The notes under the pieces: generated by a model
The model's input: the letters and a program-made list of their open reading frames with translations, nothing else
Database searches by the model: none
What the model was told of the DNA's origin: nothing
Position numbers and translations under genes: made by a program
Part shown: piece by piece, positions 5,768-31,448 of the stretch
How the letters are laid out: every line of letters begins with the position of its first letter
Numbering within the stretch: position 1 is the stretch's first letter
Assembly: GCA_021650915.1 (NCBI GenBank)
Contig: CP091279.1
Coordinates: 2,250,001 to 2,282,000, forward strand
Reading direction: 5' to 3'
Source: Candidatus Brocadia sp.
GTDB taxonomy: Bacteria > Planctomycetota > Brocadiia > Brocadiales > Brocadiaceae
DNA length: 32,000 nt

Positions 5768-5932
5768 ACGTATCTTTTCAACAAACCGCTCACCTCCATT
5801 TTTATCATTCAAATTACAACCTCAATTTAAAAAAGAGGTTACATCAAATATAACATTCACAGCATTTATTTATCTCTTTGCGGCATTTTGCTTGCTGTTT
5901 AATCAATAACTCAATTGAATAACCGTGTATAT

Positions 5933-6083
5933 CACGAAAAGGTAAACCCTGAGTGATCAGGGGGCGCAAAGTAAAGGATCTTCAATTGCGTTCTGAGTTT
6001 TGATTTTAGAAACGATTTGAGAAGATGGCCTTACTGCCGAAGATGTGTCGCACACTATCTTTGCAGTAAGGCCTTTGTTTTTT
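5933..6083 (+). promoter_or_regulatory. candidate c-di-GMP-I (GEMM-I) riboswitch aptamer plus intrinsic terminator expression platform
   Basis: 5937-5972 reads AAAAGGUAAACC-CUGA-GUGA-UCAGG-GGGCGCAAAGU. Compare the Vc2/Cd1 core GGCAAACC-helix-GNRA-helix-GGACGCAAAGC. A second long imperfect hairpin follows (AUCUUC 5978-5983 pairs with GAAGAU 6021-6026). The terminator is GGCCTTACTGC (6027-6037) / GCAGTAAGGCC (6063-6073) followed by TTTGTTTTTT. Confidence 0.55.
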
Positions 6084-6484: not shown

Positions 6485-6490
6485 TTTGTT

Positions 6491-6565
6491 GTAGGGGCGA
6501 AGCATTTGCTGATATCAGATTTGAATGTCATCTTATATCCTGGACAGCAAATGCTTCGCCCCTAC
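6491..6565. repeat. repeat family R2 (GTAGGGGCGAAGCATTTGC - ~37 nt - GCAAATGCTTCGCCCCTAC)
   Basis: 19-bp perfect inverted arms. Other copies are at 14855-14928 and 31239-31309. Confidence 0.85.
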
Positions 6566-8602: not shown

Positions 8603-8618
8603 AAGTGATCCCATCGTT

Positions 8619-9761
8619 ATGAAGAAAAATACCCGGTACACCATACCGCAGCGAAGCTGCAACCACGTCCCCCTTCATGAAGGGGACGGTCAAAACCCTT
8701 GCAAAAAAGGAAACGGTTTATACGGTACTACAATACTCAGATGCACACTGCTTATTGCAGGATTGGTATTTCCCCTGCTCAGCAGGGGAGCCCTTTCAGA
8801 CACCGCAAAGGATACCACACCACCGGTGGTGCACACGGATGTAACACCTGCGGTGGTGCATGATACCCACCTTTTTCTGAGCGGTGAGGCATGTGACAAC
8901 AACGGCATCGCACGGGTGCTGGTGAACGGATGTCCGCTGGAAATCCACACAGGAAGGCGCGTCTCTTTCAATCATCTCCTGCCCCTCAGAGAGGGAAGAA
9001 ATATCGTTACCGTCCAGGCCATTGATGCCAGCGGAAATGCGTCGGTCGTTTCGCCGGTGAAGATCACGAGAAAGGCCTTCGATCTGCCGGAAACCGTTTC
9101 CCGGTATGCCGTTGCCCTGCTTCCGGTCAAGTCCTCCCCGGCGCTTGATATGCCCGGGGAATCAATCCATTCCCTCTTCCTGAAGGCATTCGGCGAAGAA
9201 CCGCAGAGGTTCCATTTTGTGGAACGGGACCCGGCACGGCTTGAAGGAATCCTCCGTGAGCAACGGATCAGTAAAATCGGGCAGATATCCCCCGAAACGG
9301 TCATAAAGATCGGGAAGATCATTGCCGCAGAGGGGCTATTCCTGGTTACGATAGATGAAGACGTCAACGGCATCGGTATTACCCTGCGTCTGGTGGATAC
9401 GGAGACGGGTCGCATACGGGCGCAGGCAAGCGTGCATGATGCGGATAACGGCATGAAAAATCTCGAATGGCTTATCTATGGTCTGTCATTGAAGATCAAG
9501 CGACAGCTTCCCGCGGCGCAGGGGAACGTTATTCGGATTTCAGAAAACGGTTTTTATGTAAACACCGGCGCTGCTCATGGCATTGAGGTAGGGATGAAAT
9601 TATTGCTATTCCGTGAAATCAGGGAAGGGAATTTCGTCTTAAAAGAACCGCTTGACACGATTGCACGGGTGGAGCGGGTGCTGCCGCACATCTGTTTTGT
9701 TACCGTCAGCAGAGAGGGTATTTCCAGGGTGGAAAAAGGAGACCTTGTCCTTGCAAAGTAG
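8619..9761 (+). CDS. secreted Ig-like + CsgG/TolB-N-like + C-terminal beta-barrel domain protein (paralog of the 10061..12220 C-terminal half)
   Basis: The ORF track opens at 8484, overlapping the upstream gene. I prefer ATG 8619 (MKKNTRY...), though the start remains uncertain. A hydrophobic segment follows (LLIAGLVFPLLS). The Ig-like module is PPVVHTD...NGIARVLVNG...NIVTVQAIDASGN. The CsgG-like module is YAVALLPVKS...FHFVERDPARLEGILREQRI...LRLVDTETGRI. Confidence 0.75.
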   Translation: MKKNTRYTIPQRSCNHVPLHEGDGQNPCKKGNGLYGTTILRCTLLIAGLVFPLLSRGALSDTAKDTTPPVVHTDVTPAVVHDTHLFLSGEACDNNGIARVLVNGCPLEIHTGRRVSFNHLLPLREGRNIVTVQAIDASGNASVVSPVKITRKAFDLPETVSRYAVALLPVKSSPALDMPGESIHSLFLKAFGEEPQRFHFVERDPARLEGILREQRISKIGQISPETVIKIGKIIAAEGLFLVTIDEDVNGIGITLRLVDTETGRIRAQASVHDADNGMKNLEWLIYGLSLKIKRQLPAAQGNVIRISENGFYVNTGAAHGIEVGMKLLLFREIREGNFVLKEPLDTIARVERVLPHICFVTVSREGISRVEKGDLVLAK

Positions 9762-9765
9762 CAAA

Positions 9766-9871
9766 GCAGGGTGGATTAAGGCGCTTGTCTTTCAGCGCCG
9801 AATCCACCAAGATTATTAACCAGGCGGGTTCAGCAGCGTAAGGTGGATACGCTTCGCTTAATCCACCCTGC
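9766..9871. repeat. REPIN-like double hairpin, family R1
   Basis: GCAGGGTGGATTAAGGCGC..GCGCCGAATCCACC ... GGTGGATACGCTTCGCTTAATCCACCCTGC. It starts 5 nt after the stop at 9761. Confidence 0.8.
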
Positions 9872-10060
9872 TCCACGGAAAGAATATAGCCAGGGGTGAC
9901 AGCCCCTGGAAAAAGAAAAAGGATATAGCACCCATCGATGATTCTCTCTGCACTATTCAGATTCATAACGACGCATAGCCGCAACCATGTCCCCCTGCAG
10001 AAACGGGGTGAAGGGGGCGGTAAAAAGACCGGTAAAAAAAGCGGGATATTACGCGGTAAC

Positions 10061-12220
10061 ATGATAGCCATCCTGCCCCTATTTCTCCTGCCCTTTGCCG
10101 GCTGCACCACGACTTCCCGGATCGGCACGGACAACTGGCGGGATTATTTCAAGCCGGGGCATACCAAAGAGGAAATTGCCCGGGACTTTAATCTTTACCG
10201 GGGCAAGTGGTGGAACTACTACGTACGGGGCCGATGGTTTGCCGAGGGTGGTTTCTATGATGAGGCGGCTCAGGATTTCAGGAAGGCAATCAGCCTGCGC
10301 AGTCAGGATCAGCGTTCTGCCAGGAGCTACGGGATGCATTTCTGGGAATACTTTGCCCACCGCGAGCTGGGGGTTATCTATTATCACCAGGGCAAATACG
10401 AAGACGCCAAAAAGGAGCTTGAAATGTCCCGCTCTACGGCCGATTCTGCCAGGGCCAAGTATTACCTGAATAAAAGCAACGAGGCCATGATAAAGATGAC
10501 GAAGATGGATATCAAACCACCGGAGATCAGAATTACGTCACATACCAACGGCCAGGTTGTCAATACCCCGGCAGCGCACATCAGGGGGGTTGCCACCGAC
10601 GATGCCTACGTAAACGGCATGTCTATCCAGGGCAGAAGGCTGTTCATAGAACTTGCCGAACGGAATCTTTCCTTTGACGAAACCGTTTCCCTGCAGCGGG
10701 GAGAGAACGTGATCAGCATCGAGGCAACCGACCTTTCGGACAAAAGCGCCCGCCAGGATATGAAACTCATGCTCGACCTGCGCCCGCCGGTCTTGTATCT
10801 GGACGATATCCGGATCCAGAAGCGGGACGGACGCAATAGTGCAATTGTTACGGGAACCATCACGGACGACCATGGGGTACAACGCCTTTCAATAAATGAC
10901 ACCGAGATACCCATCACCCCAGGTAAGGAAGTGAAATTTCAGCATGAAATTGTCCTGACCGATGGCCATACCTTCTCCCTGAGGGCAGTCGACGTGGCCG
11001 GAAACGAAACACGGGGCGAAGAATCGTTAGACGTTAAGGCATCGCTCTGGCGCGGCGGCATATGGGATGGACATACCAGGCACATGCACCGGACAAAGGG
11101 TGCACCGGTCATGGTTGCGGCAGGCAAACTGGACAGGGCCGGCGTCAGGAGACTGCTGGCTGCTGGCGGGACAACCACCCAACCTTCCCCCGCAGGCGCT
11201 TCTCACGGGGGCACGGAAAATCCGGGAAAGGGATCAGGAGTGGCTTCTGGTTCGCACGAAACGGCAAGGGACACCATCCCGCCGGTGATCTATACGGATT
11301 TAAAATCTGCAATCGTCCATGATACAAACATCTTCTTCGGCATCCATGCGCACGACGATAACGGCATTGCAAGGCTCTTTGTCAATCAGCAGCCTTTGGA
11401 TATCCGGACTGCGAAGCACGTCTTCTTCAATCACCTGTTAACGCTCAACGAAGGAGAGAACACCGTCGTGGTAAAGGCCGTTGACAGGGAGGGAAACGAA
11501 ACGGAGCTTGCGCCGGTAAAGATTACCAAAAAGGCCTTTTATCTGCTGGAGACGGAGGCCCGGTATACCGTCGCCCTGCTTCCGTTCAGGACGTTTGAAG
11601 AAGACCAGGCGCTTACGGAAACCCTCTACTCCCTGTTGCTCAGGGCATTTGATGAAGAGCCGAAGCGGTTTAACTTTGTGGAACGCGACCTGACAAAACT
11701 GGAGGAGATCCTGCGCGAGCAAAAAATTGCCAACACGGAGCTCACCTCGCCCGACGCGGCCATAAAGGTCGGGAAGATCCGTGCGGCCGATGGCATGCTC
11801 TTTGGCGCGGTGGAGGAGGATTCCCGGGGCATCAGCGTCACCCTGCGGCTGGTCGATACGGAGACCACCCAGGTGCTGGTAAACGTCGATGTCTATGATG
11901 AAGACAAGAACGCGCAGAACCTCGCATGGCTGATGCACGGCCTGTCGCTCAAGGTGAAACGGCAATATCCCCTGGTGCAGGGCGGCGTCATCCGGATCGC
12001 AGGCAATGGATTCCACGTCGATGCCGGCGCAACGAGCGGGATGCTGGTCGGCATGAAACTGCTCATGTTCCGGGAGGTACCGGTGGGAAATCTTGCATTA
12101 AAGGAGCCCCTGTACAGTGTTGCCCGAATCGTGCAGGTGCAGCCAGACACCTCGTTTGCCCGGATAAGCACAAAGGGCATCAAGACGATAAAGAAGAAAG
12201 ACCTGGTTATAACGAAATGA
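10061..12220 (+). CDS. lipoprotein with TPR region, multiple Ig-like domains, a CsgG/TolB-N-like domain and a C-terminal beta-barrel domain
   Basis: The ORF track opens at 9938. I prefer ATG 10061, which gives a lipoprotein signal MIAILPLFLLPFAGC. The TPR-like segment is GGFYDEAAQDFRKAISL...YHQGKYEDAKKELE. There are repeated Ig-like modules (PPEIRITSH..., PPVLYLDD..., PPVIYTD...). The C-terminal ~330 aa is roughly half-identical (by eye) to 8619..9761 (FNFVERDLTKLEEILREQKI...LRLVDTETTQV). Confidence 0.8.
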   Translation: MIAILPLFLLPFAGCTTTSRIGTDNWRDYFKPGHTKEEIARDFNLYRGKWWNYYVRGRWFAEGGFYDEAAQDFRKAISLRSQDQRSARSYGMHFWEYFAHRELGVIYYHQGKYEDAKKELEMSRSTADSARAKYYLNKSNEAMIKMTKMDIKPPEIRITSHTNGQVVNTPAAHIRGVATDDAYVNGMSIQGRRLFIELAERNLSFDETVSLQRGENVISIEATDLSDKSARQDMKLMLDLRPPVLYLDDIRIQKRDGRNSAIVTGTITDDHGVQRLSINDTEIPITPGKEVKFQHEIVLTDGHTFSLRAVDVAGNETRGEESLDVKASLWRGGIWDGHTRHMHRTKGAPVMVAAGKLDRAGVRRLLAAGGTTTQPSPAGASHGGTENPGKGSGVASGSHETARDTIPPVIYTDLKSAIVHDTNIFFGIHAHDDNGIARLFVNQQPLDIRTAKHVFFNHLLTLNEGENTVVVKAVDREGNETELAPVKITKKAFYLLETEARYTVALLPFRTFEEDQALTETLYSLLLRAFDEEPKRFNFVERDLTKLEEILREQKIANTELTSPDAAIKVGKIRAADGMLFGAVEEDSRGISVTLRLVDTETTQVLVNVDVYDEDKNAQNLAWLMHGLSLKVKRQYPLVQGGVIRIAGNGFHVDAGATSGMLVGMKLLMFREVPVGNLALKEPLYSVARIVQVQPDTSFARISTKGIKTIKKKDLVITK

Positions 12221-12353
12221 AAGAGTTCTGGGATCCCGGATCGTGGATTTTGGATTGCGGATTTCGGATGGTTCGGCTTCGCTCTCCACGAGTTTTTGGT
12301 TTGCGGGTTGCGGGTTTGGGAGTTGAAAGTTTGGGATTTTGGATTTATGGCTG

Positions 12354-12440
12354 GTTCAGGCTTGCAGCCTGAACCGAAACGGTTTGGTTCAATCGTTCGG
12401 CTGAGCGCTCGCGGCGGGTTTGGGTTTGCAACCCAAACCC
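12354..12440. repeat. repeat family R4 (GGTTCAGGCTTGCAGCCTGAACCGAAACGG...) followed by the palindrome GGGTTTGGGTTTGCAACCCAAACCC
   Basis: Hairpin at 12354-12376. Related copies are at 12731-12761 and 20227-20322. Confidence 0.7.
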
Positions 12441-12500
12441 ATGATTTGATGGGGTATATTTATGCCAGAAATTGAATCGTATTCGTGCCAATCCGGCAGT

Positions 12501-12534
12501 GTAAGGCGGATACGCTTCGTTTAATCCACCCGGC
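12501..12534. repeat. half copy of family R1 (GTAAGGCGGATACGCTTCGTTTAATCCACCCGGC)
   Basis: Matches the right-hand unit of 9766-9871. Confidence 0.65.
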
Positions 12535-12630
12535 TCCACTTTTCAGATACAGGGGAAATGCCGGTTAAAAACAACCCTTGCCCCATTTCTTAAGGGGGAT
12601 TCAGGGGGCTGTCTGGTATGCTACGATACA

Positions 12631-12724
12631 AACTTTGAAATTCTTAACATTAATTAGGCCTTCGGCGATTTTCTCAATGTAAAGCGACGAGCCTCGTCGC
12701 TCTACAACTGCAACTTTGAAATTC
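12631..12724. repeat. repeat family R3, full copy, inverted relative to 6387-6484
   Basis: AACTTTGAAATTC occurs as a direct repeat at both ends (12631-12643 and 12712-12724). The internal hairpin is GCGACGAGCCTCGTCGC. Confidence 0.8.
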
Positions 12725-12730
12725 AATATA

Positions 12731-12761
12731 GGGTTCAGGCTTGTAGCCTGAACCGAGACGG
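12731..12761. repeat. repeat family R4 hairpin (GGGTTCAGGCTTGTAGCCTGAACCGAGACGG)
   Basis: Same hairpin as 12354-12376. Confidence 0.7.
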
Positions 12762-12859
12762 TAAAATACAAAAATAACCCGAAACTTGTGGTGAGCGAAG
12801 TCCCTCTCTGCCGTGCAGGCACAGGCAGGAGAACCACTCAAAACTCGAACGGTGAACCT

Positions 12860-14209
12860 ATGAAAACAAAACAAATCCTTTTTCTTATCATCCTATTTCT
12901 GCCCATCGCAGCGCCCTTCACAAAATCCTCTTTTGCTCAACAAGTACCTACCTCCATAAATGCGGTGCCTCTTCCTGTTGGCTCTGGCGCCAGGGCATTG
13001 GGCATGGGCGGCGCCTTTATTGCCGTCGCCGACGATGCCACTGCGGCATCGTGGAATCCCGGCGGCCTGACACAATTGGAAAGACCAGAACTCTCTGTGG
13101 TAGGTTCCTTCTTATCCACACACATGGATTTTGATCCTGGCAATACAGGTTTCTTCTCCCTTGGCAACGAGGATGTATCGCGGGGTGATCTGAATTATGC
13201 CAGTGTTGCATATCCATTCAAGGTGTTAGGAAAAAATCTGGTTGCTGCATTGAATTATCAACAGAAATACGATTTTCATATGAATGTTGATTTTGATTTG
13301 ACAGATGATAGTTTGGGAATTAATGAAGATATAAATATTGATTTTAAATCAAAAGGTGGAATAGGTGCCCTGACGCCTGCCATCGCCATGCAGGTGATGC
13401 CCAAACTATCCATAGGGGTAGCGGTAAATATCTTTACTGACGAATTTTTCGACGATTTTGCCTGGAAAGAAACATTGAAAATGTCAGGATTTGGTACCGA
13501 CGGAGTGGATACAATTAATGACACTGCAAAATCAGTTAGGGAATTCAAAAATTTTCAGGCAGTAAACGTAACGGCAGGCATGCTGTGGGATGTATGGGAA
13601 GAGGAGGAGAAGTGCCTTACCTTTGGCGCCGTGTATCATTCCCCATATACGGCAGATGTTGACCGTATTATAGATTCTCAAAGTACCAGCAATTTTTCAG
13701 GTTCAATTTCTACTTTTTCAAATCATATTAGGGAACATTTCGAGATAGACTATCCTATGTCTATTGGTGCTGGGTGGGGCTTCCGTTACAGCGATGCATT
13801 ATCCCTTTCTATGGATGTGACGTGGACGGATTGGTCTGAATATGAACAGGAGAATAAAGAAACCGGGGAAGAAACCCGTCCCCTGGGACTTGGTGTATCA
13901 ACTGACAGGGACATTGATGATACCTACGCTGTAAGGTTTGGCACAGAGTACCTGATTTTCCGGCAAAAGATGATTATCCCCGTACGGGGTGGACTTTTTT
14001 ACGAACCCCGTCCATCCCTGGATGACCCTACAGACGTATATGGCGTTAGTGTGGGGAGCGGCATTACCTTCAAGAGGTTCAGTATTGACGGTGCATATCA
14101 GTTCCGGTGGGCGAATGATGTGGACGGAGAAGATTTTGGTGAACTTCAAGGAACTCACTTTGATCTCCAGGAGCACCTGTTCCTGGCCTCCGTCATTGTC
14201 TATTTCTAA
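12860..14209 (+). CDS. outer-membrane beta-barrel protein, FadL/OmpP1/PorV-like
   Basis: I prefer ATG 12860 (MKTKQILFLIILFLPIAAPFTKSSFA|QQ signal peptide). The N-terminal plug-like motif GSGARALGMGGAFIAVADDATAASWNPGGL is typical of the FadL/PorV-type family. Amphipathic strands alternate throughout, and the C-terminus is aromatic (...ASVIVYF). Confidence 0.75.
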   Translation: MKTKQILFLIILFLPIAAPFTKSSFAQQVPTSINAVPLPVGSGARALGMGGAFIAVADDATAASWNPGGLTQLERPELSVVGSFLSTHMDFDPGNTGFFSLGNEDVSRGDLNYASVAYPFKVLGKNLVAALNYQQKYDFHMNVDFDLTDDSLGINEDINIDFKSKGGIGALTPAIAMQVMPKLSIGVAVNIFTDEFFDDFAWKETLKMSGFGTDGVDTINDTAKSVREFKNFQAVNVTAGMLWDVWEEEEKCLTFGAVYHSPYTADVDRIIDSQSTSNFSGSISTFSNHIREHFEIDYPMSIGAGWGFRYSDALSLSMDVTWTDWSEYEQENKETGEETRPLGLGVSTDRDIDDTYAVRFGTEYLIFRQKMIIPVRGGLFYEPRPSLDDPTDVYGVSVGSGITFKRFSIDGAYQFRWANDVDGEDFGELQGTHFDLQEHLFLASVIVYF

Positions 14210-14210
14210 G

Positions 14211-14272
14211 TTCCCCTCTAACAAGGGGTGTGTCATAGCTCCCCTCTATTAAGAGGGGTAACGGTGTGTGTC
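14211..14272. repeat. repeat family R5: tandem CCCCTCT-loop-AG(A)GGGG hairpins with GGTGTGTG flank
   Basis: CCCCTCTAACAAGGGG (14213-14228) and CCCCTCTATTAAGAGGGG (14241-14258). Related copies are at 15041-15085, 15268-15290 + 15543-15572, and 17844-17948. Confidence 0.75.
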
Positions 14273-14351
14273 TCGCAACTAAAAAAGGCATGGAGGGTGT
14301 ACTCCACCTTTATTCATACATACAAGGTTGAAAAGGAGGGAAAAAGTGAGT

Positions 14352-14750
14352 ATGAAAAATAGAAACGTGCGCTTTTATGGGCTGATGGCAGGATTCATTT
14401 TGTTCTTCAGCATATTAACCTGCGGGTGTATAACAATTACTATTTATGATAGTGATTGTTGTCAGTGTCCTCATGTAACCGGTGAAGGAATTCCAGGAGT
14501 TTATCCTATGGGAAGGATTTGGGGATATATCAAGAATAACTCGGGACAACCAATTGCTAACGCACAAATTACTATTACTCCTGGTACAGGAGTAAGTACT
14601 TCAAATTCGGCAGGAAAATATGTAACTTCTTTTGTAGATTACGGTTTGTATACATTAACAGTCACAGCTAATGGTTATCAACCTGGAGGGGGTCAAGTAA
14701 ACGTTAATGCTTTGTCAGTTCGGAAGGACTATACGCTAAATCCACAATAA
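14352..14750 (+). CDS. small membrane-anchored or lipoprotein-like protein with a CarboxypepD_reg-like beta-sandwich domain
   Basis: RBS AAGGAGG at 14333-14339. Candidate starts are GTG 14346 or ATG 14352; the track's TTG 14328 lies upstream of the RBS. Signal/anchor is FILFFSILTCGCITI. The domain reads GYIKNNSGQPIANAQITITPG...AGKYVTSFVDYGLYTLTVTANGYQP. Confidence 0.7.
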   Translation: MKNRNVRFYGLMAGFILFFSILTCGCITITIYDSDCCQCPHVTGEGIPGVYPMGRIWGYIKNNSGQPIANAQITITPGTGVSTSNSAGKYVTSFVDYGLYTLTVTANGYQPGGGQVNVNALSVRKDYTLNPQ

Positions 14751-14797
14751 CAGTAATCTTTAATCTCCACGTGGGTTCTGGGGGCTGGAGTTTAAAG

Positions 14798-14955
14798 TTT
14801 TGTAACACTTTAGTTTTTTGAAAAATTACAATAATAACGATGTTGCCGCACGGTGTAGGGGCGAAGCATTTGCCATACATTGGCATAAAGGTATTCACAC
14901 CCCAAGCAGGCAAATGCTTCGCCCCTACCTTTTCAAAAAACTAAAGTGTTACAAA
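14798..14955. repeat. 158-bp nested palindromic element: 27-bp outer inverted arms (1 mismatch) enclosing a family R2 unit
   Basis: Outer arms are TTTGTAACACTTTAGTTTTTTGAAAAA (14798-14824) and CTTTTCAAAAAACTAAAGTGTTACAAA (14929-14955). Inner arms are GTAGGGGCGAAGCATTTGCC / GGCAAATGCTTCGCCCCTAC (14855-14928). Confidence 0.85.
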
Positions 14956-15040
14956 GTTTTGTGTTTTGAGTTGTGGGTTGAGGTTAGATGTTGGAAATTG
15001 GAGGTTGGAGTTGAGAGTTACGAATTGTGTGTTCGGGAGT

Positions 15041-15085
15041 GTGTTATAGCTCCCCTCTATTAAGAGGGGGAAGGGGGTGTGTCTT
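15041..15085. repeat. repeat family R5 hairpin (CCCCTCTATTAAGAGGGG plus GGGGGTGTGT flank)
   Basis: Near-identical to 14236-14272. This explains the shared ..CVIAPLY ends of two spurious track ORFs. Confidence 0.75.
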
Positions 15086-15290
15086 ACAGAAGCCCGAAGG
15101 GCTGAAGGCATATAGAATATAGGGTTCAGGTTGCCTGTCTGTGTGCGGCCACGCACAGGCAAGCAAACCCGCAGCAGCGATGCATTTTGTGTTGAGCGCA
15201 TGTAGGGCAGGCATTGCCTGCCTTATGTCAATCTCAATTTTCGGTAGACGGTGCCTACACTGGCTAAACACACCCCCGGCCCCTCTTAGA

Positions 15291-15542
15291 AGCTTACTGT
15301 TGGACAAAATTTCGGCTGGACAAAATGACCCTAATTGGGCGATTATCATTTAAAACAGCTAATTTTACTGGTTTTTTCGCTATTGTTTTTCGAAATTTTA
15401 GTTTAATAGACTCAACACTTTGGTAAAAAACAAGTGCTTCGCAATAGAAAATTCAATGGATTAAATGTCGTAAGTCAAAGGACAATAAGATATTTACGGT
15501 TCCTTTAACTTGTCCGGCAAAAAAATTGTCCAACAGTAAGCT
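15291..15542. mobile_element. 252-bp MITE-like element with 17-bp perfect terminal inverted repeats (AGCTTACTGTTGGACAA), inserted into the loop of an R5 hairpin
   Basis: Left end 15291-15307; right end TTGTCCAACAGTAAGCT at 15526-15542. Subterminal GGACAAAAT/TTGTCC repeats are present. The interior is AT-rich and non-coding. The flanks ACACACCCCCGGCCCCTCTTAGA and TAATAGAGGGGAATAAAGGGGTGTGT are the two halves of an R5 unit. Confidence 0.75.
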
Positions 15543-15713
15543 TAATAGAGGGGAATAAAGGGGTGTGTACATCTGGCATAGCACACCCATAACCTCTCAG
15601 GTAGGTCAACCGTCCTCGGTTGACATCATAATGACAAGCGGGGACGTCTGAAGCGCTCAGCCAAACGGTTGCAAGCCTGAACCCGCGTAAAGAAAGAGAA
15701 AGGAGGAGACCAT

Positions 15714-16700
15714 ATGAAATATGTAATCCGGCGGCAATCATTCAAGGCACATGTTACGATGTGTCTGTTCATAACGTTAATTTCTACCTTGCCATTAATA
15801 GGTTCTGCATGTACTAAAGGAGCAAGTGAACCGCTAGCACCATCACCGGACAGCCCCGTGCCCAAAGAAACGCCCAGGGAAGGTGCTGTTGAACCAACGC
15901 AATCACAGGATACAACAAGTGTTGCGAGGCCAGCGCCATCAAAGCAACCAAAGGATTCAATCGATATGTCCTCTGAGGTTAAAAGCATTGGGGGCATTAC
16001 ATGGCAGGGAGATTCTCTCTGGGTGTTGGATGATGAGAGGAAAATAATCGATCGATTTGATACTACTTTAGAGGAACTTTCCCCTGACCATAAATATTCA
16101 ATTGATCTTACACAGTCAAGCGCTTTTAGTTTGAAAAAATTCAAAGGTCTGGCCTATGACAAAGAAGCCGAAGCACTCTGGGTTGCCGCTGAAGAGACAG
16201 ATATAGATCCGAAGAAAATGGTTCCGATGCTGATTAAGATTAATCTTGTCAACAGACAGACGGAACTTATAAAGATGGAGATTCCCGCAAAGAAAGGGTT
16301 TAAGTCCATTGAGGGCATTGCATGGGACAAGAAAAGAGAAAGCCTCTGGGTTGCCATTTACGCAGGATTTTCGAGCTCATTAAATCAGATCAATCCTAAA
16401 ACCAGACAAATCACAAAAAGTATCTTCTCTGATAGTTATCCCAAAGGTATTGCAACGGATGGAGAGCATCTTTGGAGTATTTGTTACAACGGAGAGGAAT
16501 TCCCTTCCGCAATAGATCAGAGAATAATACAGCCTGAAGAGCATAAAATGTTACGTTCGCGTGAATTTATTAAAGACATACCGGAAGCAGAACCCATTAG
16601 CCTTGTTTTTGATGGTAATGATCTCTGGTATGCAGATAAAAAAACAAAGCGTGTTATAAGGTTTATACAGCCCAATAAGAAACCTCTTCAATTGAAATAA
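15714..16700 (+). CDS. lipoprotein with a 5-bladed beta-propeller (glutamine cyclotransferase/NHL-like repeats)
   Basis: Strong RBS AAGGAGGAG before ATG 15714. Signal LPLIGSAC, then a Pro/Ser-rich linker. Five repeats end in an LW motif: DSLWVLD, EALWVAA, ESLWVAI, EHLWSIC, NDLWYAD. Confidence 0.75.
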   Translation: MKYVIRRQSFKAHVTMCLFITLISTLPLIGSACTKGASEPLAPSPDSPVPKETPREGAVEPTQSQDTTSVARPAPSKQPKDSIDMSSEVKSIGGITWQGDSLWVLDDERKIIDRFDTTLEELSPDHKYSIDLTQSSAFSLKKFKGLAYDKEAEALWVAAEETDIDPKKMVPMLIKINLVNRQTELIKMEIPAKKGFKSIEGIAWDKKRESLWVAIYAGFSSSLNQINPKTRQITKSIFSDSYPKGIATDGEHLWSICYNGEEFPSAIDQRIIQPEEHKMLRSREFIKDIPEAEPISLVFDGNDLWYADKKTKRVIRFIQPNKKPLQLK

Positions 16701-16729
16701 TTGCAAGCACCAAATAAGGAGAAAATATC

Positions 16730-17761
16730 ATGCAAAGATTTTTAAAGAGATTTTCCTATATCTTTATGATATGCCTTGTCCTTTCCGGAGGCTGTATCAC
16801 AGTTGAATACAGACGTGGACCTATTCCAGAACATCTGTCAATGGGGGAACATGCTCATAGTTGTTATTGTGGTTGTTGTGATATATCTGGACCTCGACCA
16901 CCACCTGTCCTATCACCCGCATCCGAATATAAACATGCCGTGTTAATCTGTGCAGGGGTAACGAATGCAGACCGACAAAGGTATAATTCAGCATATTGGT
17001 ATGATCTTATGAGTCAATATCTGATGCTGAGAGAGCGTGGGTTTAATGATGAGAATATTCATGTACTTTATGGTTATGATGGAGAAGATTACTATCCCGG
17101 ACTTTTAGATTATAACTCTGCACATTTGTTTGGTAAGAAAATTACTGATATGGCTATTTCTAAAGCGAATATTGAATCAGTATTCCAGGCATTAGGTGGT
17201 AAAAGAAGTGATGTAAATTGTGTAAGTCGTGCCCTAACTGATGAGGATTATTTGTATATCTGGTGGATGGGCCACGGCGGTTCTGATCCAGGTACTTGCA
17301 ATCTTTACTTGCCCATTAGTGTTACGGGTGAAGAATTTACTGACGTAGAATTGAGTAACTGTATTAATCAGGTTTCTCATTATAAAAAAAGAGTTGTCGC
17401 CGTAATGACCTGTTTCTCGAGTGGTATTCTCGATGATATGATAAACGAAAAAGGTGTTAATACAGTTACCCTTGCTTCATCATCCTGTGACGAATATTCA
17501 TATGATATCTGGCCGACCTGTGATCGCCGTCCTCATGCAGAATTTAATTATAAACTCACAGAGGCCATACGTCAGATGGATATATGCAATAAGCCACTTA
17601 AAAAAGATCCAGATACTAATCCAAAAGATGGTTATGTATCACTGGCGGAGGCATGTGATTATATTGCGCCGCCAATGAGAAACCCAACGGCCCCTCGCAA
17701 AATTAGTGACCCTGATAAGATAAGTGATTCGACTTATTTTAACGAGCCAAATACGCCTTAA
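16730..17761 (+). CDS. clan CD cysteine peptidase, legumain (C13)-like, lipoprotein-type signal
   Basis: 343-aa ORF with signal MICLVLSGGC. Candidate catalytic His is in YIWWMGHGGSD and Cys in VVAVMTCFSSG, in the His-then-Cys order and spacing typical of the caspase/legumain fold. HAVLICAGV matches the N-terminal beta-strand. Confidence 0.65.
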   Translation: MQRFLKRFSYIFMICLVLSGGCITVEYRRGPIPEHLSMGEHAHSCYCGCCDISGPRPPPVLSPASEYKHAVLICAGVTNADRQRYNSAYWYDLMSQYLMLRERGFNDENIHVLYGYDGEDYYPGLLDYNSAHLFGKKITDMAISKANIESVFQALGGKRSDVNCVSRALTDEDYLYIWWMGHGGSDPGTCNLYLPISVTGEEFTDVELSNCINQVSHYKKRVVAVMTCFSSGILDDMINEKGVNTVTLASSSCDEYSYDIWPTCDRRPHAEFNYKLTEAIRQMDICNKPLKKDPDTNPKDGYVSLAEACDYIAPPMRNPTAPRKISDPDKISDSTYFNEPNTP

Positions 17762-17843
17762 AGTTCACACGAGGGGGATGGAATAGAGTAGTTTTTAACA
17801 CAGCCCTTGATCTCTGCCAGCAAGGACGCACAAGAAACAGCTA

Positions 17844-17948
17844 ACACACCCCCGGCCCCTCTTTTTAGAGGGGAGGATAAAGAACACACCTCCGGCTCCT
17901 CTGCCTGTGCGTGTTCACACGCAGACAGGTCTTGATAGAGGGGAGATC
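17844..17948. repeat. composite of R5 hairpins, one carrying an inserted CCTGTGCGTG..CACGCAGACAGG hairpin
   Basis: CCCCTCTTTTTAGAGGGG (17857-17874), then CTCCTCT-[GCCTGTGCGTGTTCACACGCAGACAGGTCTTGAT]-AGAGGGGAG. Confidence 0.65.
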
Positions 17949-17993
17949 ATGGCGTTTCCCGTGTAATCTCATAAAACTCTTTTACGGGAGGGA

Positions 17994-18386
17994 ATGGATA
18001 TGAAGAGCAGATATGTGTTTTTTGTGGGGGGAGGTGTAGTCTTATGTTTGTTACTGAGTATGACAGTTGCGATTTCAAAGGCATACGCAATACCAGGAAC
18101 AGTTTCAGGAACAGTCAGGGATGACTTTGAGAAGGATGGATATGAAACAAGCGATCCTCCCTTATCACCGAACCCAGCCCTTAGGCCAAGTATGCGTCTT
18201 CTTATTGGTTCTAATGTCATTGCTGGCCCAGTTAATAGAACCCCTGAGGGGATGTATACGTTTGCAGCATTGCCAGGTAACTATACGGTAGAGGCCTCGT
18301 GTTCTGGTTTTGTGACACAGACTCAACCAGTAACAATAATTTCCGGCGGCGGTACAACAAAGAACTTTGGACTGCAACGTCCGTAG
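17994..18386 (+). CDS. small secreted protein with a CarboxypepD_reg-like beta-sandwich domain
   Basis: Signal peptide ...MTVAISKAYA|IPG. The second ATG at 18000 has better RBS spacing after GGGAGGG. The domain reads GTVSGTVRDD...EGMYTFAALPGNYTVEASCSGFVTQTQPVTI. Confidence 0.7.
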   Translation: MDMKSRYVFFVGGGVVLCLLLSMTVAISKAYAIPGTVSGTVRDDFEKDGYETSDPPLSPNPALRPSMRLLIGSNVIAGPVNRTPEGMYTFAALPGNYTVEASCSGFVTQTQPVTIISGGGTTKNFGLQRP

Positions 18387-18471
18387 TACCCGTTCGTTTT
18401 AGGCTACGGGTTTATTCACACAAATTTTTAAGCAGCATGATTCACCCACGAATAGGGGAAGGAGGAAAACC

Positions 18472-19572
18472 ATGAAACAATACTCTGAAAATGAACTAGA
18501 TGTTTTGTTGGACATCCTTGAAAGGTATGATAAGGAATTACAGGTTGAAGGTGTCTATTATATGGATGTTGGATACAGATTTAAAGATGGACAGCGGGAC
18601 GATCAACTAGTGTGCAGACATATTAATTACAAATTATATATTGTGGACAATTTTAGCTATATCGCGCCGTAAAACAGCATTTATATGTTTCGTTATTAAT
18701 ATGTCTCTACACTAGCAATACGTGTTCATACGAAGGCAAAACCGAGGAGTACCGTGGACGTGTCGAAACAGATCCCTGAAATAATAGAAGGACATCCTAC
18801 TTGCGTGATCAAATATAATTCTCAGACACCCCCAGTGGAAGTCCCTGCAGATGTGCGAATACGTGATATTCAAAATAATTGGCAAAGACGTAATCAGCGT
18901 TTTGAGACTTTAGTAGGGGGCATTGCAGTCTGGAATTCTCAATTCAAGCACGAGTGTCAAATCCCCGGTACGCTTGGAGCAATAGTCTTTCATGCTGCCA
19001 CCTCGCAATTTATGGGCTTATCAAACTATCATGTCCTCGTTCTCAATAAACAGGGAAAGGCAGAAGGGAAAAAAGGAGATACTATTATGCAGGGGAACTT
19101 TAATGAGTACCCCCCTAATCGGAATAATAGCATTGGCACTCTTTTCAAATGGAATAAGAAACTCGACTGCGCCATTTGTGCTTTAAGAGATTATTCGGAG
19201 GTGGGAGAGATTTTAGACTGTTCTAAGAGACCACAAGGGGCAATATCACCTCTGGTGGGGATGAAAGTCATCAAATCCGGCATGGCAACGGGACTTACCC
19301 GCGGGATTGTTGATGGTGTTAGCCGTACGGATAAATCATTTACCGTGATTCCTGATCCTGGTAATCCAAGTCCTACCGGTGAAATTAGCACTGGTGGGAA
19401 TTCTGGTTCTGTGTGGCTGGAATTTGAAAGTTTTTGTGCCGTAGGACTTCATTATGATGGAGAAAAGAACTCAGACCCAGGAGCTGAAAGAGCGTGGGCG
19501 AAGCAGATGACTGAGGTGGCGAAAGAGTTAGAGATTGAATTTACAACAGGGATCACAGAGATACGTGTATGA
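18472..19572 (+). pseudogene. chymotrypsin-fold (S1) serine protease interrupted by a 105-bp MITE insertion
   Basis: ORF 18472..18672 and ORF 18754..19572 share a frame. Deleting 105 bp (element plus one copy of the duplicated CTAG) joins ...YRFKDGQRDDQL to AIRVHTKAKPRSTVDVSKQIPEII... without a stop. Catalytic candidates are His in LSNYHVLV, Asp in LDCAICAL and Ser in GGNSGSVW. A GTG restart at 18754 could still yield a truncated product. Confidence 0.75.
18607..18715. mobile_element. 109-bp MITE-like element, copy 1 (21-bp terminal inverted repeats CTAGTGTGCAGACATATTAAT / ATTAATATGTCTCTACACTAG)
   Basis: The reverse complement matches 22352-22460 at 103 of 109 positions. It is flanked by, or ends in, CTAG. 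It supplies the premature TAA (18670-18672) that truncates the protease ORF. Confidence 0.85.
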
Positions 19573-19905
19573 AGAACAAACGTGTCCTGAGCGTGCCTCA
19601 TGCGGGTTCTGGTTTGTCTGCCTGTGCCTGCACGGCAGACAGAAGGCGGCTCTTACCATAAAAGTCGTTGCCAACCAGCCCTGACAGGGTTGATTCACGA
19701 CAGCCCCCTATTTTCCCCCCATTTCTCCGAGTACTCCGTGTCCTCTGTGTGAGTTGCTACAAATAAGTATATCATTACCCGATGATGGGAACACATCTTG
19801 ACTTTACCTTCTGTTTCTGATACTTTTGCTTCTGGCAATGGTTTTCATTTTTAGTCTTGCAACAAGTATGATAACAGCTATAGTGAAAGACAAAAATAAG
19901 TCCTC

Positions 19906-19990
19906 ATGCGATGAGCGGAGCGACGAAGCAATCGCTGTAATAGATTGCTTTGCTGTCGTTCGCAATGACAATGCATGTATACTTATTTAA
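19906..19990. repeat. repeat family R6 (..GAAGCAATCGCTGTAATAGATTGCTTTGCTGTCGTTCGCAATGACA..ACTTATTTAA)
   Basis: A related copy is at 23722-23835 (GCCGTCGTTCGCAATAACA...ACTTATTTAA). Confidence 0.6.
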
Positions 19991-20021
19991 AACGCTGCTT
20001 ATAATAAAAAAGGCCGGATAG

Positions 20022-20201
20022 ATGGGTAAACAACAATTTTTAAGGCAGATAAGAAGTTTTGAAGACCTTATTCTCAAGCATACCGAAAAGATGGAAAAGG
20101 AAAAGGCTAAACCGGTACCATACGATTCGGTTTCACCGCTGCCTTTTTTCGCTCCGCATTTCTCTCCGGTAATCAAAAAGGTTCTTACCGTTTTCCTTTA
20201 A
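20022..20201 (+). CDS. hypothetical 59-aa protein (below the ORF-track length cutoff)
   Basis: My translation: MGKQQFLRQIRSFEDLILKHTEKMEKEKAKPVPYDSVSPLPFFAPHFSPVIKKVLTVFL. The RBS is weak and I recognise no family. It may be non-coding. Confidence 0.25.
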   Translation: MGKQQFLRQIRSFEDLILKHTEKMEKEKAKPVPYDSVSPLPFFAPHFSPVIKKVLTVFL

Positions 20202-20226
20202 AAATCATCTGATAATTACCCCACGC

Positions 20227-20322
20227 TGGTTCAGACTTTGCCACGCATGCCCGGCAGAGCGATTGGCAGCCTGAACCGAAACGGCATGATTCACTCGTTC
20301 GACTCTGTGCTCACGACGAAGT
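20227..20322. repeat. repeat family R4 copy (..CAGCCTGAACCGAAACGG..TCGTTCGACTCTGTGCTCACGACGAAGTC)
   Basis: Parallels 12354-12417. The CTGTGCTCACGACGAAGTC part also occurs inverted at 6178-6200. Confidence 0.6.
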
Positions 20323-20329
20323 CTGCACG

Positions 20330-22351
20330 GTGATAACCAGTTGAGGGAGGCGTGCCTTGAAGTATGGGATACCTAAGTGGTTGAAAATATCACCTCTGCG
20401 AGCCTAAATCCTCGTAGAGAAGTTTGTACCTATGCGTATACAAAGGAGCAATCCGTATGCGGAGAAAGATGGCGTATTCCCGTGAAGGGTATGACGGAGT
20501 TACGAGGTACAGACGACCTTTTGGGGTGTATGAGTATGGCGTGTTAGTTCGTGCCAACTGCCCCTTCTCAGTAAAGCACTGACAAATGTCCTTGTTGGAG
20601 ATGATGCAAGCGATTCGGTGAAAACATCTCTGGATAATGCGTTTGAACATACATCACGAAGGGAAAAGGGGTAATCCATATGACCGGGGGAGGACTTACG
20701 TCTTGGGAAGAAATTCCCTAACAGCGAGGTATAAGGGAAATCCGAAATCCAAGCTGTATGAGATGGTGACGGACGACTGGCTCTCACAGGTCTGTCTTTG
20801 AAGTCGTCAGCATTGCTCATAATAGTTTCTGGTGTGTACCAGGAATGAAGGGGCATAACCGTAGTGGAGTTGATGAAACGTGGTAGATTGAATACGTTCC
20901 ATGAGAAAAGAGACTCTTTGCATGGGCAAGTAGTAGCAAGAGACTCTCTTGTTTTGCCTCTGTCAGGAGGAATCTCGACTCAGGAAACACGATTGACAAG
21001 TCTATTATCCGGAATCAATCAAAAGGAACATATCGGGAGATGCTTAAGTATCATTCTTTAAGAGACAAGGTATTCAGTCTGAGAAACCTTTATGCGGCTT
21101 TTGGGCACGTAAAGAAGAATAAAGGCAAGGCTGGTCTCGACAGGGTAAGTATTAAGCAGTTTGAAAGTGACCTTGAGAATAATCTACAAGCTATTCACAA
21201 GGAACTGAAAACCGCCATATACAACCCTGCGCCCGTCTTAAGGGTCTACATTCCCAAAGGCAGGCATGGCAAGAGACCTCTTGGCATTCCCATTGTCAAG
21301 GACAGGGTAGTACAGCAGGCGTTCAGACAAATCATAGAGCCAATATTCGAGAAAGAATTCTCGGATAACAGCTTTGGATTTCGTCCAAACAGATGCTGTC
21401 ATGATGCTATCAAACGGATTGAACAGTATAAGCAGCAAGGGTATCGGAACATTTTGGACGCCGATATAAAGGCGTTCTATGACACCATACCTCACAAGCT
21501 TATCATGAACTCCTTGCGTGAGAAAATCGCTGACGGATGGGTTTTGAACAGTATCGAGAACATGCTCAAGGCAGGGGTCATGGAGAACGGCATCGTGCAC
21601 GAGACAAATCAAGGCACTCCGCAAGGAGGCGTCATATCCCCCTTGCTTGCAAACCTTATCGGTGACATCATCGACAAGGAGCTTGAAAAGGCAGGATATA
21701 AATTTGTCCGCTATGCCGATGACTTCGTTGTCATGACTAAAACGAAAGAAGAACTCCCTGCCGCCCTTCAGTACGTCAAAGAAATCATTGAAGGGAAACT
21801 TGAAATGAAGCTGCGCGAGGATAAAACCAGGCTCACCAACTTCAAACGAGGCTTCCGGTTTCTTGGATATAATTTCATGGGCAAGAACAAGGGTGTAAGC
21901 ATGAAATCCCTGGACAAACTCAAGGACGCCGTCAGAGACATCACCAAACGCACACAAGGCGTCAACCTGCAAGCCGTCATTGATACATTAAATCCTGTCA
22001 TAAGGGGACATGTCAACTATTTTCGGCTGGGCAATGTACAAACGGTATATCGCTCGTTAGACTGCTGGGTACGCATGAGACTGAGAAGTTTCAAGTTTTC
22101 GAGAAAATGGAAAACTGACAACAAACGTTTCCCGGTACACCGATTCTTTAAGATGGGGTTACTCTCATTTGAAAGAGAATTTCTTAAGGCACGTGCGAAG
22201 GCATGATAGTTTACTTTTCTCTGCTCCAGAGCAACACTATGGGGTCGCTAACTACGGGAAAGCCGTATGGTTTAAAAGGATACTTTGTCACGTTGTCCAA
22301 AGTATCTGGCGACGATTGGGGGTTGGAGGCGATTCGCCTCCTTCCTACCAG
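20330..22351 (+). mobile_element. group II intron (ribozyme domains I-IV upstream of the RT ORF, short 3' tail); boundaries approximate
   Basis: About 700 nt of non-coding sequence precedes the RT. It has segments resembling group II domain I/III strings remembered from Ll.LtrB (GGUAUAAG; GUAGUAG...CAUGGGCAA). A ~145-nt structured tail follows the ORF (hairpins at 22273-22306 and 22325-22341). I could not fold a canonical domain V or place GUGYG / AY ends confidently. Confidence 0.6.
21040..22206 (+). CDS. group II intron reverse transcriptase/maturase, lacking the En (HNH) domain
   Basis: 388-aa ORF. RT motifs: RVYIPKGRHGKRPLGIP, FGFRP, DADIKAFYDTI, GTPQGGVISPLLANL, the YADDFVV active site, and the X/maturase motif LNPVIRGHVNYF. 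There is no C-terminal zinc-finger/HNH. Confidence 0.9.
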   Translation: MLKYHSLRDKVFSLRNLYAAFGHVKKNKGKAGLDRVSIKQFESDLENNLQAIHKELKTAIYNPAPVLRVYIPKGRHGKRPLGIPIVKDRVVQQAFRQIIEPIFEKEFSDNSFGFRPNRCCHDAIKRIEQYKQQGYRNILDADIKAFYDTIPHKLIMNSLREKIADGWVLNSIENMLKAGVMENGIVHETNQGTPQGGVISPLLANLIGDIIDKELEKAGYKFVRYADDFVVMTKTKEELPAALQYVKEIIEGKLEMKLREDKTRLTNFKRGFRFLGYNFMGKNKGVSMKSLDKLKDAVRDITKRTQGVNLQAVIDTLNPVIRGHVNYFRLGNVQTVYRSLDCWVRMRLRSFKFSRKWKTDNKRFPVHRFFKMGLLSFEREFLKARAKA

Positions 22352-22460
22352 CTAGTGTAGAGACATATTAATAACGAAACATATAAATGCTGTTTTGCAG
22401 CACTATATAACTATAATTGTCCACAATATATAATTTGTAATTAATATGTCTGCACACTAG
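22352..22460. mobile_element. 109-bp MITE-like element, copy 2, inverted relative to copy 1
   Basis: The outer 45 and 41 nt are 100% identical to the reverse complement of 18607-18715. All 6 differences fall in the central 18 nt. It ends 68 nt upstream of the rlmN start. Confidence 0.85.
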
Positions 22461-22527
22461 TCGCACTGCCGGGCGGATTTACCTTTGCCCTACGCAATGA
22501 AGGTTCTGGTTGCAATGGCGCTACGCT

Positions 22528-23604
22528 ATGGATAAAACAAAGTTATTATCAATTACCAATATGTCTTTATCGGAACTGGAGGCATGGTGCACCTCTCTGG
22601 GGGAACCTACTTACCGGGCGAAACAGATGCTTTCATGGGTTTATGATAAGGGGGCAATGGCCTTTGACCAGATGTCTAACCTGCCTAAAAATTTTCAAAA
22701 ACACCTGGCCGGGCAGCGCCGGGTCTTTCAGACGAGCATTAGCGACATTACACAAACTGCCTATGGCACAGAGAAGTTCCTGGTGCATGTATCCGATGGA
22801 AATGTGATCGAATGTGTATTGCTCAGGGAAGGCAAAAGGACCACGGTGTGCATCTCAACCCAGGTAGGATGCGCCATGGCGTGCCAGTTCTGTGCCAGCG
22901 GTCTCCCTGGTCTTGAAAGGAACCTTACCACCGGTGAGATCGTTGAACAGGCACTCCATGTGAAAAATCATCTTCCCCGGGAAGAACGCATTACCAACAT
23001 TGTCTTTATGGGTATTGGCGAGCCGCTCATGAACTATGATAACGTTATCAAGGCTGCCCGGATTATGAATGCCGAATGGGGATTCGGCATCGGGGCGCGT
23101 CATATTACGATTTCAACGGTGGGTATTATCGACGGTATCCGCCGGCTGGCGCATGAAGGGCTTCAGATAAATCTGGCAATATCCCTTCATGCGCCCGACG
23201 ATAGGATACGGTCGAAGATAATCCCATCGAATAAAAAAATCGGCGTTAAAAATCTCATAGCGGCGGCCAGGGAATATTTCGAAACTACGCGACGGGATAT
23301 CAGCTTTGAATATCTCTTGATCGATGGCGTCAATGCATCCCGACAGGACGCAGAGTCCCTGGCACGATTGCTGAAAGGCATGCAATGCAACATAAACGTT
23401 CTCCCCGTGAATCCCGTTGAAGAATTTCACTGGCGGCCGCCTTCCCGTGAAACGATTGAAACCTTTTGCAGAATGCTGGAAAACCATGGCCTCGTCGTTA
23501 CGCTCCGGAAGAAAAAGGGAAGCCACATTAACGCGGCATGTGGTCAGCTCCGTCTGCAACGGCAGAAATTTTTATGGAAAAACCAGGAACATTGTGTTAA
23601 ATAA
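22528..23604 (+). CDS. rlmN: 23S rRNA (adenine2503-C2)/tRNA methyltransferase, radical SAM
   Basis: I prefer ATG 22528 (MDKTKLLSITNMSLSELEAWC..). Hallmarks are YRAKQMLSWVY, the radical SAM cluster motif CAMACQFCASG, GIGEPLMN and a C-terminal ACGQL. Confidence 0.92.
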   Translation: MDKTKLLSITNMSLSELEAWCTSLGEPTYRAKQMLSWVYDKGAMAFDQMSNLPKNFQKHLAGQRRVFQTSISDITQTAYGTEKFLVHVSDGNVIECVLLREGKRTTVCISTQVGCAMACQFCASGLPGLERNLTTGEIVEQALHVKNHLPREERITNIVFMGIGEPLMNYDNVIKAARIMNAEWGFGIGARHITISTVGIIDGIRRLAHEGLQINLAISLHAPDDRIRSKIIPSNKKIGVKNLIAAAREYFETTRRDISFEYLLIDGVNASRQDAESLARLLKGMQCNINVLPVNPVEEFHWRPPSRETIETFCRMLENHGLVVTLRKKKGSHINAACGQLRLQRQKFLWKNQEHCVK

Positions 23605-24681: not shown

Positions 24682-24849
24682 GTCGCAATTAATCATAAAT
24701 AATATGTCTGGAAATTAGTTAAGACTACGGCACATTTTCTTGCTTTCCTTCTGAAACAAAGGGGTTGATATTTTGTTTTGAATGGCCATCCGTATGGATC
24801 TTCCATAAAACTACCACCACATATCTATCGTTATAAAAGGAGAATTGTA

Positions 24850-31040: not shown

Positions 31041-31238
31041 CTTTCCCCTTCTCCCTGAGGCGTGTACTCCTGCCAAGATAATATCCTGATAAAACCGGCT
31101 TGGGTCAGAACCGTGATGACTACGAATGGCCGGTCGTGTTAACACGATCTCCGGTACGACACCATGCCCAGAAATACAAATCCCTTGTTGGGCACCGGAG
31201 ATTGAAACTTTCCGGTAACCCTTACGTTTTGAAAAAAA

Positions 31239-31309
31239 GCAGGGGCGAAGTTTTTGCCAGTATGAACACGCACATATCCATACCGATTATGGCAAATGCT
31301 TCGCCCCTG
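31239..31309. repeat. repeat family R2 copy (GCAGGGGCGAAGTTTTTGCC ... GGCAAATGCTTCGCCCCTG)
   Basis: A variant of the 6491-6565 and 14855-14928 units, with a GCAG head instead of GTAG. Confidence 0.75.
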
Positions 31310-31448
31310 TGAGTAAGGTTTTCATACCTCTCCTTCATTCCCTCATCGAGAATGAGGGGAGAGAGGGCTGATTATGTTGATTGTGGCTTCGCGGTATCAA
31401 ATAAAAGTATGATTTTTCTAAGAAAAACACACCGTTTTAAGCATATTT

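Follow-up and report, generated by a model that had tools for sequence, protein, structure and literature searches.

Introduction

[quoted passage not shown] We have analysed a 32,000-nucleotide stretch of Candidatus Brocadia sp. DNA (assembly GCA_021650915.1, contig CP091279.1, positions 2,250,001 to 2,282,000; the whole stretch is called the window below, and its own numbering is used), in which a 109-bp MITE-like element at 18607-18715 splits the gene of a predicted NAL1-like serine protease. Like the IS630-derived MITEs, the Brocadia element is about 100 bp long, AT-rich and non-coding, is present in many copies, forms a long predicted hairpin, has terminal inverted repeats (TIRs) in common with an IS630-family element and occupies a TA-containing target; unlike them it is confined to CTAG, which is stricter than plain TA. 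Our literature search found no paper linking MITEs to Brocadia, and neither this MITE sequence family nor its IS630-type partner in Brocadia appears to have been described in the searchable literature. That an IS630-derived MITE can disrupt a gene is well known, and knowledge of how MITEs work is left unchanged.

Elements of the IS630 family target TA, which is duplicated on insertion (PMC2170065), and according to the title of Tenzen and Ohtsubo (1991), cited in that paper, IS630 prefers the TA of 5'-CTAG-3'. Members of the family have been reported from anammox genomes (PMC7814187). Compared with IS630 of Shigella sonnei and ISY100 of Synechocystis, both of the IS630/Tc1/mariner family, the Brocadia partner element likewise has a length of about 1.15 kb and a predicted transposase with helix-turn-helix (HTH) and DDE_3 domains, and it probably shares with IS630 the insertion into the TA of CTAG; it differs in having the transposase in two overlapping open reading frames (ORFs; 163 and 179 aa) and a lineage-specific TIR. 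The interrupted protease resembles rice NAL1 (NARROW LEAF 1; PDB 7Y77, 8PMG, 8HAU) in the order His-Asp-Ser, in a GDSGS-type serine motif and in a structural match over the whole length, whereas it is bacterial, 331 rather than 582 aa long, about 17% identical, and reads GNSGS. With alpha-lytic protease and Streptomyces griseus protease B (S1, bacterial branch) it has in common the double beta-barrel and the same triad order, but it lacks a secretion signal and an alpha-lytic-type pro-region and carries an extra NAL1-type N-terminal domain of about 105 residues.

Our account, to which we assign a probability of about 0.88, is that an IS630-family MITE, mobilised in trans, inserted into a CTAG of the protease gene.

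Results and Discussion

The interrupted gene and its restored reading frame

The protease gene lies on the plus strand and has a Shine-Dalgarno sequence (AGGAGG, 18460-18465) 6 nt 5' of its native ATG at 18472. Its 5' fragment, codons 1-45 (MKQYSE...GQRDDQ), occupies 18472-18606, and its 3' fragment, codons 46-331 and the stop codon, occupies 18712-19572. The ORFs at 18472-18672 (66 aa) and 18754-19572 (272 aa) are in the same frame, and deletion of 105 bp joins the two fragments into a 996-nt ORF of 331 codons plus stop with GGACAGCGGGACGATCAACTAGCAATACGTGTTCATACG as the reconstructed empty-site junction, so that excision restores the frame exactly, as the original prediction had claimed. A homolog search with the reconstructed 331-aa protein returned 169 relatives, most of them covering 97-99% of its length; the alignment runs from end to end for more than 100 of them. 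Two alignments were made, one of the closest 18 sequences (A2) and one of all 51 (A3). The junction (...GQRDDQ/LAIRVHTKA...) aligns without gaps with the family consensus G-x-P-T-D-x-LAIRVHV, the conserved motif D-x-LAIRVH straddles it exactly, and at least 90% of the 51 sequences share Leu46, Ala47, Ile48, Arg49 and His51. BLASTP against the closest full-length relative (P0002; 51% identity, E=3e-113), a check that had been proposed with the prediction, gave an alignment that is ungapped from residue 1 past the junction, whereas the 66-aa upstream ORF follows the N-terminus of the same relative as far as the junction (E=3e-21) and diverges beyond it. Homologs carry the counterpart of 18472-18606 joined directly to that of the segment from 18716, and the 109-bp segment is not conserved as coding sequence in related genomes, the relatives being gap-free at this point.

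The 66-aa chimera encoded upstream (a segment of which reads DDQLVCRHINYK) consists of 46 native and 20 foreign residues (VCRHINYKLYIVDNFSYIAP) and ends at an in-frame TAA at 18670-18672, within the element. The TAA had been foreseen; the number of foreign codons, given earlier as 21, is 20, because the first CTA is native Leu46 recreated by the target duplication.

Anatomy of the 109-bp element

The segment at 18607-18715 (copy A, plus strand; 109 bp counting both flanking CTAG tetranucleotides) is bounded by CTAG at 18607-18610 on the left and 18712-18715 on the right, exactly where the prediction had placed a CTAG-to-CTAG element. Its left TIR is located at 18607-18627 (CTAGTGTGCAGACATATTAAT) and its right TIR at 18695-18715 (CTAGTGTAGAGACATATTAAT on the minus strand); the two match over 21 nt with 2 mismatches, and at an extension to 34 nt the identity is 82%. 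When the window was searched with the 21-mer, permitting up to 3 mismatches, four matches were obtained versus 0 expected from 100 shuffles, and these are the two ends of copy A and the two ends of a second copy, B. The GC content of copy A is 30% (46.5% in the window), stop codons in six of six frames leave it without coding capacity, and for one strand on its own a long hairpin is predicted (-31.3 kcal/mol, z = -5.5).

The net insertion, i.e. the element plus one copy of the duplication, is 105 bp or 35 codons. The most likely anatomy is a 103-bp element at 18610-18712 with TA duplicated at 18608-18609 and 18713-18714. Because the target CTAG is palindromic the length of the duplication is hidden, and a 4-bp CTAG duplication is formally possible too, as the prediction of a "CTAG or TA" duplication allowed; IS630 parentage, discussed below, favours TA within CTAG.

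Promoter and terminator counts in 18300-19800 were no higher than in shuffled sequences, neither of the two terminator-like sites in that region fell inside the MITE, and the sole promoter-like match inside it (18615-18642, 9/12) is unremarkable. Rfam searches of the window and of 19500-22600 gave no match in or beside the MITE, and the tRNA scan found no tRNA genes.

Copies at other sites

Copy B (22352-22460, minus strand) is 109 bp long, differs from copy A by 6 substitutions and is intergenic, upstream of rlmN and about 5-7 nt past the 3' end of a group II intron. Since copies A and B are inverted, 95% complementary and 3,634 nt apart, they might be taken as the ends of one composite element of 3.85 kb with the 3' ORF as cargo. 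This arrangement is excluded already by the colinear continuation of the protease across copy A, each copy moreover has its own TIR pair and its own CTAG flanks, and single 109-bp copies occur at 12 other sites; we give it practically no chance.

Those sites were found by scanning public metagenome contigs for the exact terminal repeat without CTAG, which yielded 63 loci. A BLAST search of the 109-bp element against these loci revealed full-length copies, 88-100% identical, in 14 contigs belonging to two assemblies, WBZY01 and WBZR01. After merging of duplicates, and including the two window copies, 14 distinct flanking contexts remained. CTAG is present on both sides at all of them except on one side of the most diverged copy (L050), where the right-hand CTAG reads CCAG. 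The occurrence of the same element at 14 different flanks, together with ends shared with an IS630-family element (see below), bears out the claim that it transposed. As the copy at one unrelated site (L044) is 100% identical to copy A, the family has moved recently.

Another copy, 99% identical, splits a second gene in frame. It is located at 1324-1432 of contig WBZR01003960.1 (L076) within a cas9-like gene on the minus strand (about 750-2560); when 105 bp are removed a 567-aa N-terminal portion (MEKYILGLDVGTNSIG...) results, across whose junction the Pfam match to Cas9_a (E=5e-17) is continuous. This gene is truncated once more further downstream.

Three apparent signals were discarded. A putative third copy in the window, at 24696-24720, shows only a 25-nt partial resemblance and no second end. 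The A...C just outside the CTAGs of both window copies is not conserved at the other 12 sites and is attributed to chance. Eight single hits to GTGTRSAGACATATTAAT in genomes of unrelated taxa, obtained in the genome scan described below, are chance matches, none being from Brocadia and none having a second repeat nearby.

An IS630-type partner

In three contigs (L034, L070 and L056) one MITE-like end is found beside transposase genes. Two of them (L034 and L070) represent different insertion sites of a single insertion sequence of about 1.15 kb, the end of which is exactly CTAGTGTAGAGACATATTAAT, with about 40 nt common to the MITE. This insertion sequence encodes a 163-aa protein matching HTH_32 and HTH_23 (E=2.2e-13 and 2.9e-09) and, overlapping it, a 171-179-aa protein matching DDE_3 (E=2.4e-24). 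In the third contig (L056) the C-terminal part of another DDE_3 transposase precedes an element end that has about 60 nt in common with the MITE and is flanked by TA-C (ACAC-TA-C), not TAG. By exact look-up, the NCBI name of these transposase ORFs is "IS630 family transposase [Candidatus Brocadia sp.]", and a single contig of 4,046,273 bp encodes both the members UJS19081 and UJS19082 of the transposase cluster and the split gene's 270-aa product (UJS19270). Because the ends are shared with an IS630-type element, the target is CTAG and the transposase is of the HTH plus DDE_3 type, the small element is a MITE derived from an IS630-type insertion sequence.

IS5 elements target CTAG-like sites, and the CTAG on both sides of the insertion sites would fit a 4-bp duplication equally well, so that a MITE from an IS5-like family duplicating 4 bp at CTAG was considered in place of an IS630 derivative. 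The only transposase-bearing elements found with these TIRs, however, encode HTH and DDE_3 domains and are assigned by NCBI to the IS630 family, and one related element end is flanked by TA-C instead of TAG. We consider an IS5-like origin quite improbable.

Distribution in assemblies and intact orthologs

All conspecific assemblies that were examined carry the insertion. Contig LAQJ01000307 of Candidatus Brocadia fulgida is 99.96% identical to the window over 5.5 kb with the same element in the same place, and a further metagenome contig (L066), 99.7% identical, carries it too. An assembly artefact, the repeat being threaded wrongly into the gene, deserves mention because one Logan contig (L010) is chimeric through the MITE, so repeat-induced chimeras do occur. 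The filled site is nevertheless read through in three assemblies (the window, LAQJ01000307 and WBZY01031256), which are independent and identical through both junctions, and this excludes the artefact. In addition, the element is entered from either side by separate Logan contigs of many runs: some, in several independent runs, end 29 nt inside the left end (window 18635) and others begin 27-29 nt inside the right end (18687-18689). End-points of this kind are typical of a repeat in an occupied site, and a misassembly is hardly conceivable.

The chimeric contig itself (L010, SRR28201750) contains at 567-675 a hybrid MITE that joins the left flank of the site found in L022 to the right flank of the protease site. 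The contig arose either as a chimera in the de Bruijn graph or by real MITE-MITE recombination.

No intact conspecific allele was found among about 15 billion proteins or from the contig end-points, a survey that did not include a direct junction scan of metagenomes. The 90%-identity cluster of the downstream product has members of 245-272 aa only, and the next best of the roughly 15 billion proteins is 51% identical. Syntenic orthologs of 318 aa in Candidatus Jettenia ecosi (L084) and of 329 aa in a second anammox contig (L082) are intact. In the latter the same codons read GAT CGA CTA GCT ATA CGT, i.e. an unoccupied CTAG at Leu-Ala. In the suggested survey for an empty site, the orthologs, at 49-51% identity, proved uninterrupted, and no conspecific empty allele was found.

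Synteny with Candidatus Jettenia ecosi supports the claim that the protease is the last gene of its cluster. In the window the cluster (6617-19572, all on one strand) encodes a C14 caspase-PEGA protein, a CsgG-like protein, a FadL-like porin, a CarboxypepD_reg protein, a C13 peptidase and the NAL1-like protease, and mirrors the order in Candidatus Jettenia ecosi (C14 caspase-PEGA, CsgG-like, FadL/Toluene_X porin, CarboxypepD_reg, protease). A cyclic di-GMP-I riboswitch (Rfam RF01051, 53.5 bits, E=6e-8) was detected at 5931-6041 (plus strand), about 575 nt upstream of the first cluster gene (C14-PEGA, 6617-8602) and on the same strand as the cluster.

Fold and family of the protease

The only Pfam match of the window protein is Nal1_C at 16.9 bits, below the cut-off of 26.1, and no curated S1/trypsin model matched it above threshold. 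Among the 51 homologs 7 match Trypsin_2 and 35 match Pfam NAL1_N. An AlphaFold model built from the 51 sequences (predicted local distance difference test 90.5, predicted template modelling score 0.90) has in residues 1-105 a helix, a beta-hairpin (28-38 and 41-52), a further strand and a helix, followed by a two-barrel domain. The junction falls in strand 41-52, the second strand of the hairpin, in agreement with the N-terminal beta-hairpin region suggested from the sequence. In a Foldseek search of the PDB the best match was rice NAL1 (E=2e-15, whole-length TM score 0.66-0.69); alpha-lytic protease and Streptomyces proteases came next (E about 1e-9), and the probability was 1.00 for both NAL1 and alpha-lytic protease. 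The family profile likewise matched NAL1 at E=7e-15 over positions 33-138, which include the junction strand, and alpha-lytic protease at about 1e-5 (E=8e-6) in the C-terminal half. The gene product is therefore modelled as a NAL1-like serine protease of chymotrypsin fold: of the earlier label "S1 protease" the fold and catalytic type stand, and the generic S1 assignment gives way to a specifically NAL1-like family.

On the basis of conservation the candidate catalytic residues are His152 (19030-19032), Asp197 (19165-19167) and Ser276 (19402-19404; all plus strand), in the order His-Asp-Ser and with the serine in a G-x-S-G motif. No sequence of A2 or A3 deviates at His152 or Asp197; Ser276 is likewise without exception in A2, and in A3 its conservation is at least 90%. 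The motif around the serine reads GNSGS in the window protease (codon 275, 19399-19401) versus GDSGS in more than 90% of relatives. In total the window protein deviates at 7 of the 64 columns that are at least 90% conserved (V52T, D76C, D139H, P173G, R191K, R207S and D275N), compared with a median of 2 and with 3 for the nearest relatives.

JGI labels several bacterial members of the NAL1-like family "endonuclease G", apparently through an error of annotation, and some members have extra lectin, FG-GAP or other domains.

Proposed course of the insertion and probable fate of the gene

In the course that we propose, an IS630-family transposase encoded elsewhere in the same Candidatus Brocadia genome would have mobilised the MITE in trans, and cut-and-paste insertion would have taken place into the TA of the CTAG that spans the codons of Leu46 (CTA) and Ala47 (GCA). 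The 103 bp of the element and a 2-bp TA duplication would make up the 105-bp net insertion. The frame is preserved because this equals 35 codons, yet in the present orientation the in-frame TAA would stop translation, so that synthesis from the native ATG halts after 46 native and 20 foreign residues and the 286 codons with the catalytic His, Asp and Ser would be left without their native start. In all likelihood the protease gene is a null allele that has become fixed in this species. The description "recently inactivated" has to be qualified, given the presence of the insertion in every conspecific assembly examined.

The main alternative is that the split gene still functions, either by producing a shortened protease of 270 or 272 aa or with the MITE as a reversible switch that is removed by precise excision. 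Candidate restart signals are located within the coding sequence at 18744-18762 (plus strand), where GAGGAG (18744-18749) lies 4-10 nt upstream of two GTG codons; GTG 18754 starts the 272-aa ORF, and public records annotate the 270-aa product that begins at GTG 18760. His152, Asp197 and Ser276 of the triad are all retained, every population sampled has the insertion, and most of these populations have a downstream ORF of 100% identity. A product restarted at an internal GTG is conceivable, and from the predicted structure it would lack residues 1-59, i.e. the helix and beta-hairpin of the NAL1_N-like domain. In rice, NAL1 without its N-terminal region forms trimers instead of hexamers, has a mis-set catalytic triad and is inactive in cells (PMC12012508), and by analogy the Brocadia restart product may be impaired in the same way. 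In L066, the one variant allele found, the downstream ORF shows three non-synonymous and no synonymous changes, and these changes and the seven deviant conserved columns, D275N in the GDSGS motif among them, may be read as two weak signs of relaxed constraint. As to a switch, the strong hairpin of the MITE is flanked by direct repeats, a geometry that favours slippage deletions, but no empty-site allele was seen among the proteins or contigs examined. A functional remnant is in our judgement unlikely, and the remnant and the switch carry little probability even when taken jointly. There is only a slight chance that the insertion is more than simple decay and represents a fixed, possibly selected change to a NAL1-like cage protease whose conserved cluster is preceded by a cyclic di-GMP riboswitch, in the form of a GTG-started shortened enzyme with altered assembly or of an on/off switch in which the MITE excises at low frequency.

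Several observations speak against insertion of an IS630-type MITE with loss of the gene, or limit how much of it is secured. Since CTAG is palindromic, CTAG and TA duplications are indistinguishable at the MITE sites, and a single related element end (ACAC-TA-C in L056) hints at TA. The predicted transposase is seen in the contigs split into two overlapping ORFs. A scan of 185,579 species-representative genomes with GTGTRSAGACATATTAAT gave no copy of the element in any genome. As no conspecific empty site was found, mobility at this locus rests on the orthologs at 49-51% identity and on the other sites of the element. Finally, the downstream ORF retains the catalytic triad and the Shine-Dalgarno-like GAGGAG followed by a GTG start, and loss of function is what we infer from the disrupted structure of the gene.

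The public annotation needs correction. Two "hypothetical proteins" in the records (BROFUL_03357 and BROFUL_03358; L3J18_10095 in another record) are the halves of one disrupted gene, and both should be listed as one disrupted NAL1-like protease gene. Another outcome is the definition, for Candidatus Brocadia, of a MITE family that is currently active and of the IS630-type element paired with it. The family has disrupted at least two genes, since the cas9-like gene is split too, and it explains some assembly gaps, because short-read contigs break exactly in these repeats. For strain typing in anammox reactors its insertions might be usable as markers. Furthermore, bacterial relatives of the rice yield gene NAL1 close a conserved anammox gene cluster.

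Neighbouring repeats

The group II intron next to copy B extends over about 20351-22346 (plus strand) and contains a reverse transcriptase/maturase ORF at 21040-22206 (RVT_1 E=3e-40, GIIM E=1e-16); both ends of the intron, 5' and 3', are found again in other metagenome contigs (L022, L044 and L060). Rfam did not detect the intron RNA although the reverse transcriptase ORF is clear.

The genome appears to be rich in small repeats. Short dispersed repeats were observed in the window at 3697-3833, at 12353-12416, 12732-12762 and 20255-20318, and at 12581-12674, and dispersed repeats are common to the window and metagenome contigs (L028 96%, L064 86%). A second, unrelated MITE-like family is represented at 14802-14952 by a 151-bp element with perfect 23-nt TIRs (GTAACACTTTAGTTTTTTGAAAA), flanked at 14794-14801 and 14953-14960 by 8-bp direct repeats (AAAGTTTT). 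A copy in contig L022 is 94% identical and has another 8-bp flanking repeat (GATTCTGT), and the internal palindrome of the 151-bp element (GTAGGGGCGAAGCATTTGC) occurs again at 6490-6565 and 31238-31310.

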